Shown here piece by piece: positions 27,839 through 31,990 of a stretch of DNA of 64,000 bases. The first letter of the stretch is position 1. Every line of letters starts with the position of its first letter. Both the position numbers and the translations under genes were made by a program. The notes beneath the pieces are model-generated. The model did not search any database. It saw nothing but the letters and a program-made list of their open reading frames with translations, and was not told the origin of the DNA. Source of the stretch: a virus; the IMG/VR virus record IMGVR_UViG_3300025818_000017, one strand, 5' to 3'.

Positions 27839-28927
27839 TTGAGAATTGCGTTTATCGGTGTTGGGAAACTTGGACTTCCCTGTGCGGAAGAGATTGCTAA
27901 AAAAGGTCATACTGTTACTGGTTATGATATTTCTGGTTTTGAATCAGGACTTGTAGAAAAGAAAGATTCTATCAAAGACCTCATTCATTATGGTTATCAA
28001 GATGATAACTGCCCAGACATTGTATTTATTGCTGTTCCAACACCGCACGAAAAAGAATATGACGGACGTTACCCGACGGCGCATTTAGAACCAAAAGACT
28101 TTGACTATTCTATCGTAAAAGAAGTTCTAACCGAAGTAGAAAGATATGCCAACAATACGACACTGGTTGTATTGATTTCAACCGTTCTGCCCGGCACAGT
28201 TCGTAGAGAGTTTATTGATCTGATGCCACGAATGAAACATCGTTTCGTCTATAATCCATATCTTATTGCTATGGGTACTGTGGGTTGGGATATGATCAAT
28301 CCAGAAATGGTAATGATTGGTACAAAGGACGGTGATGAAACCACTGACGCAAAAGAACTGATCGACTTCTATAAGACGATTATGGAAAATGATCCACGCT
28401 ATATCGTTGGTACTTGGGACGAATGTGAATGTATCAAAATCTTCTATAATACATTCATTTCAACGAAAGTGTCGCTGGTGAACATGATTCAAGATGTTGC
28501 TGAACGACAAGGTAATATTGACGTTGATGTGGTTACAAAAGCCTTGGCGGATTCGACGCATCGCATTATGTCTCCTATGTATATGAAGGCTGGTATGGGC
28601 GATGGTGGAGCTTGTGTAAAACCTGATTTCAAAGTCACTGTAAATGATGAAGTAGTATCAATAAGCGATCTTTATGAAAAGTTTGATGAAAACGAATACT
28701 ATATTGTTGATTCTATGAACTGGTCAGGAACCAATACGGACCAAAAGAAAATAGCAGAAGTAACTAAACGAGAATATACGGGAAAACTATACACATTTAC
28801 TACAAGTAGCGGAAAGAGTATATCCGTAACAGAAGATCATCTTATCCCCATTGAGCGAGACAGAAAACGAATCATTATACCAGCAAAAGAAGTAAAAAAC
28901 ACAGATAAAATGTTTGTTTTTGGGTGA
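27839..28927 (+). CDS. ugd: UDP-glucose/GDP-mannose dehydrogenase N-terminal fragment fused to N-intein
   Basis: GVGKLG, IAVPTP, STV.PG, E.IK.F.N; ends GMGDGGA|CVKPD...TEDH...FG*. Confidence 0.95.
   Translation: MRIAFIGVGKLGLPCAEEIAKKGHTVTGYDISGFESGLVEKKDSIKDLIHYGYQDDNCPDIVFIAVPTPHEKEYDGRYPTAHLEPKDFDYSIVKEVLTEVERYANNTTLVVLISTVLPGTVRREFIDLMPRMKHRFVYNPYLIAMGTVGWDMINPEMVMIGTKDGDETTDAKELIDFYKTIMENDPRYIVGTWDECECIKIFYNTFISTKVSLVNMIQDVAERQGNIDVDVVTKALADSTHRIMSPMYMKAGMGDGGACVKPDFKVTVNDEVVSISDLYEKFDENEYYIVDSMNWSGTNTDQKKIAEVTKREYTGKLYTFTTSSGKSISVTEDHLIPIERDRKRIIIPAKEVKNTDKMFVFG
28613..28924 (+). mobile_element. split intein N-half (104 aa)
   Basis: block A Cys1 (CVKPDF), block B SVTEDH, then tandem stops TGA TAG. 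Confidence 0.92.
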
Positions 28928-28942
28928 TAGCGGGGCTTGTTA

Positions 28943-28979
28943 TGTATTTTTTGTATAAATACTTTATACAGGAGATACA
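28943..28979 (+). promoter_or_regulatory. 17-bp hairpin containing late promoter TATAAATA and sequestering the GGAG RBS
   Basis: 28943-28959 pairs with 28963-28979 (3 G:U pairs). Confidence 0.85.
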
Positions 28980-28981
28980 AA

Positions 28982-29827
28982 ATGGTTATAGAAGAATACA
29001 GGAGAGATAAAACTGAAAAGTGTAAAAAGTCATTATCTGGTAAACGAACAATAAAGGAGAAGATGGTTCTTATTGAGTGTGACGAATGTGGTGAAAAACA
29101 TAACAGAACACTTGGTCATTATAATAAGATGAAAAAACAGGAACTATTTGATAAAGATTATTGTAATGTTTGCTGGCGTCCCATACTCAATAGTAGACCA
29201 GAAAAGATTGAAAAAATGAGAGAAGGTCTTAAAAAAGTATGGAGTGATCCTAAAAAACGCCAAGAAATGTCTGTGACTATGAAACAACATTGTGAAGAAA
29301 CTGGAAGAATGATAGGAGATAATAATCCTATGAAAAATCCAGATACGCAAAAGAGAGTCAGTGAAACACGGTCAGCAAATATGACTCCCGAAGAACGACA
29401 AAAGTATTCAAACGCAACGAAGAAAGCGTGGGAAGAAGGCAAGTATATAGATAAAAAAACAACACAGTGTAAATGGTATGATTATGTTGATAAAAATGGC
29501 AGAATACATAAATGTCAAGGAACTTGGGAGTTGGCATATGCTGAATATCTTGATAACAATGGCATTAGGTTCAAATCGCATTTTGGAAAAATCCCTTATG
29601 TTGATGACGAGGGTGTAAGTCATAACTATTATCCAGATTTTTATCTAATAGATACAAATGAATATGTTGATGTTAAGGCAACATATTGGTTAGCAAGGCA
29701 AAAACGAAAGTTTGAGTTACTTAAAGAACAATCAACAGAAAAGATACTCATTTTAACAGAAAACGAGTTAACAAAGAAAGGTGTAATGATTTATGGCAAC
29801 GGAAAAGATAGTAGATATTCAAGTTGA
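28982..29827 (+). CDS. free-standing homing endonuclease (Zn-ribbon/NUMOD3-like N-part plus PD-(D/E)XK domain)
   Basis: CDEC..CNVC, GDNNPMKNP, GTWE, YYPDF...VDVK; sits between the intein halves. Confidence 0.75.
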   Translation: MVIEEYRRDKTEKCKKSLSGKRTIKEKMVLIECDECGEKHNRTLGHYNKMKKQELFDKDYCNVCWRPILNSRPEKIEKMREGLKKVWSDPKKRQEMSVTMKQHCEETGRMIGDNNPMKNPDTQKRVSETRSANMTPEERQKYSNATKKAWEEGKYIDKKTTQCKWYDYVDKNGRIHKCQGTWELAYAEYLDNNGIRFKSHFGKIPYVDDEGVSHNYYPDFYLIDTNEYVDVKATYWLARQKRKFELLKEQSTEKILILTENELTKKGVMIYGNGKDSRYSS

Positions 29828-30326
29828 AGAATATACAGGCGATGTGTATAATCTTGAAGTAGAACCTAACCACGAAGAAAAAGACGATCAGTTTTATCTG
29901 TGTGCTGATACAGGTATTGTAATCCATAACTGCCATCCAAGAGACAACATTGCCCTACGATGGATGGCAGATAACCTTGATCTTGGCTATGACCTATTTG
30001 ATGCCATTATGAATGCCAGAGAGAAACAAGCAAAAAATATGGCAGAAGCATTAATGAAATATAAACTTCCTGTTGTTATACTTGGTAAATCGTACAAACC
30101 AGGTGTGGAATATGAAGATGGAAGTTCAAGCATTCTTGTGGGTTCTTATGTTGAGCATCTTGGCGGCGAGCTACATTACGATAAAATACTTGATGCACCT
30201 GCGGTGTATCTACTTGCTCACCCGCTCGACAGATTTGACCAAGGAGCAGAAGACTCAGTCGTTGTTGATCCTTGGAGACAAGTCTGGACTCAACACAAGG
30301 TAAAATATTACGGAAAGACCCGATGA
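29793..30326 (+). CDS. ugd: C-intein (46 aa) fused to UDP-glucose dehydrogenase C-terminal fragment
   Basis: VYNLEV...GIVIHN|CHPRDNIAL, LGKSYKP. Confidence 0.95.
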   Translation: MATEKIVDIQVEEYTGDVYNLEVEPNHEEKDDQFYLCADTGIVIHNCHPRDNIALRWMADNLDLGYDLFDAIMNAREKQAKNMAEALMKYKLPVVILGKSYKPGVEYEDGSSSILVGSYVEHLGGELHYDKILDAPAVYLLAHPLDRFDQGAEDSVVVDPWRQVWTQHKVKYYGKTR

Positions 30327-31054
30327 TTGTAATCGGTGCTGGTTGTAGTCTTATTGAAGGCGCGGAACTGGAAAGCCAAGAACAAACTTGGCCTTGTAAA
30401 CTTGCTCGTCGGCACAATATGTCTTATGTAAACGCTGGGCATACTGGTGTCGGTAATAGGTACATTGCTCATAAGGTTATCAATGAAGTTTCTGCCCTTG
30501 CCGAAGAAGACTTATTTGTAATCGTTCAATGGTCTTATCTTTCCCGTTACGACTATCTGTTATCGTTTGATACACAAGAGCGCAACAGTCCTTGGTACAC
30601 AATAACACCCGCTCATCTAAATCTGGGCGACGAAACTGTTGCTAAATGTTTCGGTAAAGACTATATTGAGCGTATTCATGAGTTTGGTGTTACTGATTGG
30701 GTAGAAGCACACTATAAGTTAGTTGGTGATGCTAATGAAACTGATAGTAGCCTTGCGGAAATACTGATGGTCCAAGAGTTTCTAAATAATAGAAACATTC
30801 CGTATATCTTTACTACGGCTGAAAACTGGAATGAATATCGTGCATTCCAAAACCCAACACACTCTAAGGCATATTACGATGCTATTGATTGGTATAAGTT
30901 TAGATGGTTTCCACACGACCTTGGGCCAACTGGATTTGTGTATTGGGCAAATGCTAATGATTTTCCGAAGGCACCTATGGGTCATCCATTGGAACCAGCA
31001 CACGAAGCAGCAGCAGATATTATGGAGAAGTATTTTGTCCAAGAAATTAACTGA
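30323..31054 (+). CDS. SGNH-hydrolase-like protein
   Basis: GCS, GVGN, QWS, HP...H. Confidence 0.6.
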   Translation: MIVIGAGCSLIEGAELESQEQTWPCKLARRHNMSYVNAGHTGVGNRYIAHKVINEVSALAEEDLFVIVQWSYLSRYDYLLSFDTQERNSPWYTITPAHLNLGDETVAKCFGKDYIERIHEFGVTDWVEAHYKLVGDANETDSSLAEILMVQEFLNNRNIPYIFTTAENWNEYRAFQNPTHSKAYYDAIDWYKFRWFPHDLGPTGFVYWANANDFPKAPMGHPLEPAHEAAADIMEKYFVQEIN

Positions 31055-31333: not shown

Positions 31334-31990
31334 ATGGTAAAGATATTAGAAGATTACGAACAACCTTTTGACGCATACTTAGATTTTGAGAAAATGATAA
31401 GTGAGTATACGGGCGCACCTTATGTTGTGCTAACCGATTGCTGTACGCATGCTATGGAACTGTGTATTAGATACTGGGCAAGAGAAAACCAGATTGATCT
31501 TACCCAGCGAAGCGTGGTCTTGCCCCATCGTACATACCTCAGTGTCCCAATGATGATTCATAAGTTAGGTATTACATTAGAAGATTACGAATTGCTGAAC
31601 TGGGATAGCGATGATATGTATCCTATCCGTGGCGTAGTAAACGATAAAGTGTACGATTGCGCTAGGTTATTCAAAGAAGATATGTACATAAAAGGCACAT
31701 ATATGTGTTTGAGCTTTGGTCATCGTAAACCATTACAAATCGGTAACGGTGGAGCTATCTTACTTGATGATGTTGAAGAGTACAATGACTTGAAGCAAAT
31801 GACATATGATGGAAGAGCTATTCATGATTTTGATCCGTGGGTAGATCAAGCCGTATTCAAGGTTGGGTATCACTATAATATGCGTGTTGAGACAACTATT
31901 AGAGGAATGCGTTTATTGCATGATGGTGAGATTGGAAAAGCATTACCATTCTACTATCCAGATTTGAGGGAGATTACTATTGTATTCTAA
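31334..31990 (+). CDS. DegT/DnrJ/EryC1/StrS aminotransferase
   Basis: TDCCTHAMEL, TYLSVP, CLSFG..KPLQIG.GGAIL. Confidence 0.88.
   Translation: MVKILEDYEQPFDAYLDFEKMISEYTGAPYVVLTDCCTHAMELCIRYWARENQIDLTQRSVVLPHRTYLSVPMMIHKLGITLEDYELLNWDSDDMYPIRGVVNDKVYDCARLFKEDMYIKGTYMCLSFGHRKPLQIGNGGAILLDDVEEYNDLKQMTYDGRAIHDFDPWVDQAVFKVGYHYNMRVETTIRGMRLLHDGEIGKALPFYYPDLREITIVF

Follow-up and report, generated by a model that had tools for sequence, protein, structure and literature searches.

The stretch of DNA analysed here, called the window, is 64,000 nucleotides long and corresponds to IMG/VR virus record IMGVR_UViG_3300025818_000017, from an uncultured freshwater jumbo phage. The stretch was found in 17 sequencing runs from 11 studies, mostly freshwater metagenomes. 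Its gene for UDP-glucose dehydrogenase (UGD) lies in two pieces with a nuclease gene between them, and each piece carries one half of an intein, the N-terminal half (IntN) following the first part of the enzyme (N-extein) and the C-terminal half (IntC) preceding the second part (C-extein). All three open reading frames (ORFs) are on the same strand, the N part being in frame with IntN and the C part with IntC. The features of the locus are listed below, all on the plus strand and in window coordinates.

27839-28927, plus strand: N gene (N-extein and IntN), start TTG with GGAG 6 nt upstream, ending in TGA TAG.
27839..28612, plus strand: N-extein, UGD residues 1-258, C-terminal sequence GMGDGGA, with the NAD-binding domain and most of the central domain (Pfam PF03721 and PF00984).
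28613..28924, plus strand: IntN, 104 aa, with block A Cys1 and block B TEDH (from Pfam Intein_splicing and inteins in the PDB).
28925..28930, plus strand: tandem stops TGA TAG closing the N gene, read from the sequence and unchanged in contigs from other samples; in relatives, too, the N gene stops where IntN ends.
28943..28979, plus strand: RNA hairpin found by folding, with a 17-bp stem, containing TATAAATA (28954-28961) and the ribosome-binding site (RBS) AGGAG (28970-28974).
28982..29827, plus strand: free-standing endonuclease, 281 aa, likely start ATG 28982, 8 nt after the AGGAG at 28970-28974.
29793-30326, plus strand: C gene (IntC and C-extein), stop at 30324-30326.
29793..29930, plus strand: IntC, 46 aa, block F VYNLE, block G ending in HN, net charge -10 (from alignment to inteins 2jmz and 2cw7).
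29931..30326, plus strand: C-extein, 131 aa, beginning with the Cys (TGC, 29931-29933) of CHPRD and continuing with HPRDNIAL (from PHROG 9148 and the alignment to phage Bellamy).

An earlier sequence-only reading of this DNA had described an N gene ending in GMGDGGA, a 104-aa IntN with TEDH and TGA TAG, followed by a free-standing endonuclease and a separate ORF in which a 46-aa IntC ends in HN before CHPRDNIAL. The N gene coordinates were confirmed to the base, the C gene was confirmed at 29793-30326, and the endonuclease stood with its likely start moved to ATG 28982, its frame being open from 28931 and the ORF list giving a start at 28937. A non-coding spacer of 51 nt separates the stops of the N gene from the endonuclease start, and the endonuclease ORF and the IntC gene overlap by 35 nt. 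Besides reaching 35 nt into the IntC gene, the endonuclease ORF of the window carries an 11-residue tail (29787-29827), which is missing in most relatives, whose endonuclease ends in an ATGA overlap with the IntC start; a 60 %-identical relative (P0002) has a tail similar to that in the window.

The Pfam search of the N protein gave matches to PF03721 (E = 3e-20) and PF00984 (E = 1.2e-13), both above their cut-offs, and PHROG 9148, UDP-glucose dehydrogenase, matched both outer proteins (E = 1.5e-20 for the C protein). The C-terminal UDP-binding domain, PF03720, had no Pfam match on the C protein, which is matched by PHROG 9148. When spliced in silico, the two exteins give a product of 389 aa which is 60 % identical to the intein-free UGD of Synechococcus phage Bellamy (gp227), with 65 % identity in the N-extein and 53 % in the C part, and 23 identical residues run across the junction without a gap, so that the rejoined GGA-CHPRD is as the sequence-only reading had expected. 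The Cys of the identical GGACHPRD motif of Bellamy aligns with the Cys of GGSCFPKD in the solved UGDs 4a7p and 3vtf, as it should if the +1 Cys of the intein is the catalytic Cys of UGD, which had also been claimed; the Bellamy protein can be aligned to the solved enzymes as far as residues 338-362. The Cys of this motif is presumably the catalytic nucleophile, as is established for the family. On these matches, the interrupted gene is a member of the UDP-glucose/GDP-mannose dehydrogenase family, with UDP-glucose as the predicted substrate. Public annotations name the N halves as “UDP-glucose 6-dehydrogenase” or “nucleotide sugar dehydrogenase”, or leave them unnamed.

A second, contiguous intein was observed in the UGD N gene of a related locus (L090, positions 779-2956; IMGVR_UViG_3300010316_000005, a 175.7-kb contig). 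It is approximately 353 aa long, lies within the conserved FYN|TFIS motif, has Cys as its first residue, ends in GN|T, contains two LAGLIDADG-like motifs, and is present alongside the split intein at the catalytic Cys. The phage UGD gene therefore has at least two intein insertion sites.

The marks of a class 1 intein are present in the window, namely Cys1 of block A, TxxH of block B, the His-Asn of block G and a +1 Cys. The single IntN sequence matched the solved intein 2jmz (E = 1.9e-5), and a profile of 22 IntN alleles matched the inteins KlbA (2jmz, 2.1e-11), PI-PkoII (2cw7, 2.4e-8) and Pab PolC (1e-6) and the fractured-gene intein NrdJ-1 (8ubs, 4e-5), while IntC aligns weakly to the C-terminal blocks of 2jmz and 2cw7 (E = 0.011-0.07). 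Among the 22 IntN alleles C1, T73 of block B and four other positions are invariant, and H76 of block B is kept in 21; among 18 IntC alleles N20, D32, H45 and N46 are invariant, D32 sitting in a DDQ/DDL loop after block F. The +1 residue is Cys in all alleles extracted. The conservation pattern is what an active intein would be expected to show and would fit splicing in trans. The IntN that departs in block B (L086:30-341) has Gln in place of the His (TSDQ for TxxH), and may be a decaying or slower allele. A word-indexed protein search with IntN alone returned only the query, and the IntN profile retrieved 13 N-half proteins; the lack of a contiguous form among them speaks weakly for the absence of such a form.

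Intein-free and fractured forms of the gene, which the sequence-only reading had marked out as worth a search, were both found. Contigs co-occurring with the phage (runs X1, X3, X4 and X5; window 28580-28615) follow the window as far as the Cys codon at 28613-28615 and go on directly into the HPRDNIAL codons; they represent alleles without the intein, carried by other phages of the same water. More than 597 relatives were recovered when IMG/VR was scanned with the N protein, and of the 80 best, which were examined, approximately 66 are uninterrupted at exactly the junction codon, and eleven loci (L002-L012), falling into three allele groups, have the same three-ORF layout as the window. A second IMG/VR scan, made with a profile of the nuclease, gave 69 loci. 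These included further fractured alleles of the long UGD type (L082-L092 and L111) and a second host, UGD-family proteins of approximately 300 aa (L097-L110, L112 and L126; for example L100:1869-4004), in which the junction reads GFGG-x|C...HN|C-[FL]-PKD, Pfam confirms the N-terminal and central domains, and a homologous split intein with the same nuclease family breaks the gene at the homologous Cys. The short proteins of this second host have NAD-binding and central domains only and are without the C-terminal UDP-binding domain. Over both UGD-type hosts, more than 20 distinct fractured alleles are present in IMG/VR.

The nuclease scan also gave free copies of the nuclease just downstream of intact, intein-free genes for short UGD-like proteins, approximately 150 nt from the Cys codon (L096:1-1265, L121:1866-3477, L122:1835-3489 and L123:1-1477), and a nuclease gene standing free beside an intact UGD-like gene may represent the stage from which the fractured arrangement arose. 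Of about 31 distinct loci that contain this nuclease subfamily, about 27 lie within or beside genes of the UGD family. The nuclease tree separates the two host types into two clades, each with 99 % support in the Shimodaira-Hasegawa-like approximate likelihood ratio test (SH-aLRT), and within the second of these clades free-standing and intein-nested copies are intermixed. At a further locus (L116:2713-3915) the ORF downstream of the nuclease ends like the short UGD type (DWE-x-MKGRAV), with no IntC or HN|C motif seen there; it may be a UGD gene that the nuclease fractured with no intein involved, or else a degraded UGD gene. A megablast search of 50,697 phage records with 24 kb of the window gave no match, and tblastn with the nuclease and IntN gave only distant matches (27-41 % partial identity; a Lak phage intein at 35 %), so the cassette is in no deposited phage among those records.

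Selection was estimated by the Nei-Gojobori method, as the ratio of nonsynonymous to synonymous substitution rates (dN/dS) and as the corresponding proportions of differences (pN and pS). For unsaturated pairs dN/dS was 0.16-0.34 in IntN and 0.05-0.53 in IntC, and dS was saturated in most comparisons of the window with its relatives. Between the window and L002, pN is far below pS in all five parts (pN/pS of 0.198/0.646 in IntN, 0.139/0.86 in IntC and 0.296/0.76 in the endonuclease), with a dN/dS of 0.076 in the N-extein. On these substitution patterns, the exteins and intein halves are under purifying selection.

Two of the fractured alleles, L007 and L009, come from different metagenomes and have exteins that are well diverged (87 % protein identity between the N-exteins and 78 % between the C-exteins, pS 0.65-0.87), whereas their IntN and IntC are identical in DNA, their endonucleases differ at 2 bases, and their spacers differ by one 5-nt indel and one substitution. 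A 60-nt sliding comparison together with a list of mismatches placed the nearest flanking mismatches 1 nt upstream of the Cys1 codon and 18 nt downstream of the last IntC codon, with the exteins 57-88 % identical. A near-identical cassette in diverged alleles, with identity dropping at the edges of the intein, marks a recent transfer of the whole cassette. A 120-nt segment covering the UGD start and the sequence immediately before it (L007:4891-5010) is 100 % identical between the two loci and the extein that follows is 63-88 % identical; this edge is a second mosaic boundary, beside the gene. In the extein tree the fractured alleles fall into three separately supported clades, each beside intein-free alleles, and well-supported branches force at least three changes, a result which 0 of 500 label shuffles equalled. 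The L007/L009 identity and the patchiness of the extein tree point to the cassette moving as one unit into diverged alleles, in a pattern that would be expected as the footprint of homing. The idea of “collaborative homing” exists for cyanophage psbA.

The 51-nt spacer folds into a hairpin with a minimum free energy of -16.9 kcal/mol (z = -4.19; 1 of 200 shuffles as good), in which the left arm and loop carry TATAAATA and the right arm covers the endonuclease RBS, AGGAG. The endonuclease thus brings its own hairpin, promoter-like element and RBS. Among the relatives, L002 has a hairpin of similar design (z = -2.1), L004 has a 10-bp stem over AAGGAG, and L007 and L009 have weak stems only.

This arrangement is that of the fractured genes described by Dassa et al. 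in 2009 (PMC2677866), in which the hosts were gp41, IMPDH, DnaE, NrdA, NrdJ, ligase and terminase and the nucleases were of the GIY-YIG or Vsr-like types, and the likeness to gp41, NrdJ, IMPDH and DnaE drawn in the sequence-only reading was borne out, all nucleotide hallmarks in that paper being present. The window shares with those loci three ORFs on one strand, IntN followed by stops, a phage or metagenome context, a split at the canonical position of endonuclease insertion, and a hairpin with TATAAATA over the endonuclease RBS; that paper reported hairpins for 15 of its 16 endonuclease leaders, and TATAAATA in 10 of these. The spacer is 27-51 nt there and 51 nt here, and the overlap of the endonuclease with the IntC gene is 6-69 bp there and 35 bp here. 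Every nucleotide feature tested (spacer length, RBS-sequestering hairpin and overlap) fits the 2009 layout. The differences are in the host, which is a nucleotide-sugar dehydrogenase here and enzymes of DNA synthesis and repair there; in the nuclease, which is a T7-endonuclease-I-like PD-(D/E)XK enzyme with a four-Cys finger and not of the GIY-YIG or Vsr-like types; and in the intein family, which has Asn at position 4 of block F.

Taken as a whole, the locus is read as a fractured gene in which a mobile cassette, composed of IntN, a homing endonuclease gene and IntC, has been placed directly before the catalytic Cys codon of UGD, and this reading is given a probability of roughly 0.85. Three proteins would be made from the locus. 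The UGD fragments would meet through their intein halves, which would fold into one Hint domain and carry out class 1 trans-splicing by an acyl shift at Cys1, attack by the +1 Cys and cyclisation of the Asn, releasing a 389-aa UGD with the native GGA-CHPRD active site. Since the +1 splicing nucleophile is the catalytic thiol of the enzyme, activity should need splicing. The most likely target of the nuclease is the vicinity of the conserved Cys motif in UGD alleles that lack the intein and belong to co-infecting phages; repair of the cut would then copy the whole cassette into such an allele, and the hairpin over the RBS probably holds down translation of the nuclease on read-through transcripts. 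The simpler history, which is the route proposed by Dassa et al., would be that a free-standing homing endonuclease gene invaded a mini-intein; two things favour it, the expression signals that the nuclease gene has of its own and the existence of free-standing relatives next to intact UGD-like genes.

Several points weigh against this reading. The Intein_splicing match on the N protein (E = 2.4e-7, 31.1 bits) is below the 35.8-bit gathering cut-off, and a sub-threshold score is what is expected for half a domain. Position 4 of block F (window 29850-29852, IntC residue 20) is Asn in 18 of 18 alleles, giving VYNL here against VYDL, with Asp, in the solved inteins 2jmz and 2cw7. Asp is usual at this position in class 1 inteins, though not universal, and with Asn the splicing chemistry may be slower or differently tuned; the Asn and the invariant Asp of the DDQ/DDL loop may together be a variant of the splicing active site that is specific to this family. 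Conservation is high over the 30 nt that have the junction at their centre (0.84 against a gene mean of 0.73), yet this is not the most conserved stretch of the gene. The motif TATAAATA occurs 6 times in the window against 5.4 expected, which is no enrichment, so its role as a promoter in the phage stays putative. There was no RNA run among the runs containing the stretch.

Three of these points, taken together, could describe a decaying relic, with intein halves that have lost the ability to splice and a UGD reduced to a dead, split pseudogene, accompanied by an active or inactive nuclease gene: the Asn in place of Asp at position 4 of block F, the Gln that replaces the block B His in L086, and the lack of an RNA run. 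Such decay is improbable given the purifying selection on both exteins and both intein halves, the invariance of the splicing nucleophiles in 18-22 alleles over two host types, and the fact that the block F Asn is itself invariant, which points to a family trait and not to loss of function. Slightly less probable still is a two-chain enzyme in which the intein halves serve only as association domains and no ligation takes place, as in Aeh1 NrdA with other interaction domains. Fractured genes that work without splicing do exist, as indicated by PMC3045599 and by the SbcD-like locus in PMC2677866, but here the break is inside the active-site motif at the catalytic Cys, with 150 intein residues attached, and mere association needs no conserved Cys1, TxxH, HN and +1 Cys.

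The N gene and the endonuclease share one frame in the window, and the sequence-only reading had taken this as a sign that a once-contiguous intein was fractured. The shared frame itself was confirmed; the conclusion drawn from it did not hold, since in four related allele groups the endonuclease is in other frames relative to IntN, and the shared frame in the window is thus a 1-in-3 chance outcome. The same observation is what would favour a contiguous, bifunctional intein formed by read-through of TGA TAG or by removal of an intron, and this is very unlikely, as IntC is in another frame, the endonuclease of relatives does not keep the IntN frame, two stops and a structured spacer stand between IntN and the endonuclease, the endonuclease has an RBS of its own, non-coding DNA amounts to only 51 nt, and no Rfam family, group I and II introns included, matched 28400-30100 at E <= 1. 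That the stops are false, through an error of assembly or sequencing, is hardly credible, since Logan contigs from three further freshwater samples, other than the likely source, cover either the stops at 28925-28930 (X3 record 9, X4 record 17) or the endonuclease/IntC junction at 29793 (X3 record 14, X5 record 29) with 0 differences, giving no continuous ORF of the kind that the sequence-only reading had set against itself, the stops are at the same place in independently assembled relatives, and the same layout recurs in more than 20 independently assembled alleles.

The middle nuclease consists of a four-Cys zinc finger (C33, C36, C61 and C64), a helical region with an NPMK motif, and a C-terminal PD-(D/E)XK domain with active-site residues E183, P218-D219 and D230-x-K232. 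Invariant in 18 family members are the Cys residues 33, 36, 61 and 64, Asn115 (of NPMK), E183 (of QGTWEL), P218-D219, K232 and K243, and, judged by these residues, the site is a canonical E/PD/DxK and is intact. The single nuclease sequence had T7 endonuclease I as its sole match in the PDB (E = 1e-4), and the 18-member profile matched T7 endonuclease I (3cae, 1m0d) at E = 8e-8 over the PD...ExK core, while neither the sequence nor the profile matched Vsr or I-Bth0305I (3r3p) at E <= 10. The nuclease matches PHROG 22215 and PHROG endonuclease families, and its Pfam match, to DUF7487, is weak; a search of the literature, with subscription journals outside its coverage, gave no paper on DUF7487. 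The family has 1720 representatives at E <= 1e-3.

An AlphaFold model of the nuclease (predicted local distance difference test, pLDDT, 84.9) combines a zinc-finger head rich in beta structure with long helices and, at residues 163-270, a nuclease domain. The domain model matches restriction-endonuclease-like folds (TnsA Z = 9.1, Bax1 7.3, I-Bth0305I 7.0, Vsr 6.9), so the distinction from Vsr-like nucleases lies in the sequence and the Lys-type site and cannot be drawn from the fold alone. A Foldseek search of the model against the PDB gave no match at E <= 0.001, because the domain swap of T7 endonuclease I spoils the superposition. Assignment of the nuclease to the EDxHD (Vsr-like) type was considered and rejected, there being no sequence match, a Lys-type site, and only the fold in common. 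The nuclease is thus of neither the GIY-YIG nor the Vsr-like type reported for fractured genes, a type which is not a strict requirement of them. Near-identical cassettes and the patchy distribution on the extein tree are indirect signs that it may belong to the homing endonuclease class. With odds a little better than even, it represents an undescribed homing lineage, built of a four-Cys finger, NUMOD-like helices and a T7-endonuclease-I-like PD-(D/E)XK domain, that is specialised on nucleotide-sugar dehydrogenase genes and has been caught in several states, free-standing behind intact UGD-like genes or nested within a split intein in two UGD-type hosts, with at least one very recent transfer of the cassette.

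Among known nucleases, T7 endonuclease I (gp3; 1m0d, 3cae, 2pfj) is the only solved relative by sequence; it is a 149-aa domain-swapped Holliday-junction resolvase without DNA-binding extensions, whereas the nuclease of the window has approximately 160 extra N-terminal residues and a homing-type genomic context. I-Bth0305I, of the EDxHD type (PMC3239194; 3r3p), resembles it in consisting of two parts, a DNA-binding N-terminal region that contains NUMOD-like helices and a C-terminal nuclease of restriction-endonuclease fold, the structural match (Z = 7.0) extending over 81 residues, and EDxHD nucleases also occur in fractured genes; the catalytic residue there is His, in contrast to the E/PD/DxK site with invariant Lys in the window. 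The Aeh1 nrdA endonuclease, as it is cited in PMC2677866, is likewise a free-standing, gene-fracturing nuclease with a similar hairpin and late-promoter logic, but the interrupting element in systems of that type is an intron and not an intein.

The sequence-only reading had also called a sugar dehydrogenase an unusual host. No description of a split or fractured UGD, or of a T7-endonuclease-I-like homing nuclease, was found in the literature, subscription journals being outside the coverage, and to that extent the claim stood; it was overstated in that archaeal UGDs host contiguous inteins. Ten contiguous inteins in COG1004 are recorded from Euryarchaeota (PMC4760082), and UGD is listed as an intein host by InBase, as cited in PMC2874743. 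The archaeal inteins of UDP-glucose/GDP-mannose dehydrogenases are in the same host enzyme family and are contiguous, whereas the intein described here is split, borne by a phage and accompanied by a separate nuclease gene. The host enzyme and the type of nuclease appear new to the fractured-gene layout, which has itself been known since 2009, and no new principle is involved.

A tightly packed sugar-modification cluster on the plus strand begins with the fractured UGD. The next gene (30323-31054) overlaps the UGD stop by ATGA and has no Pfam or PHROG match, and an aminotransferase-like ORF lies within the cluster at 31334-31990.

The locus widens the host range of fractured genes beyond enzymes of DNA metabolism to a sugar-nucleotide enzyme, and indicates that the fractured layout accepts a third nuclease family, which fits a repeated origin in which nucleases invade inteins. 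That diverged alleles have a near-identical cassette indicates movement of a split intein and its nuclease as one unit in nature. The more than 20 diverged IntN/IntC pairs, with Cys+1, the block F Asn and a very acidic IntC, are candidate orthogonal split inteins, and the family, marked by the invariant Asn and strongly acidic IntC, may provide an orthogonal trans-splicing tool; the nuclease may offer a new scaffold for cutting DNA at specific sequences. If the interpretation is correct, the free-standing and nested states of the nuclease would form a natural series for the model in which a free-standing nuclease invades an intein and breaks the gene. The fractured UGD is real, well conserved and apparently mobile, and is useful both for the building of intein tools and for the gene-breaking model.

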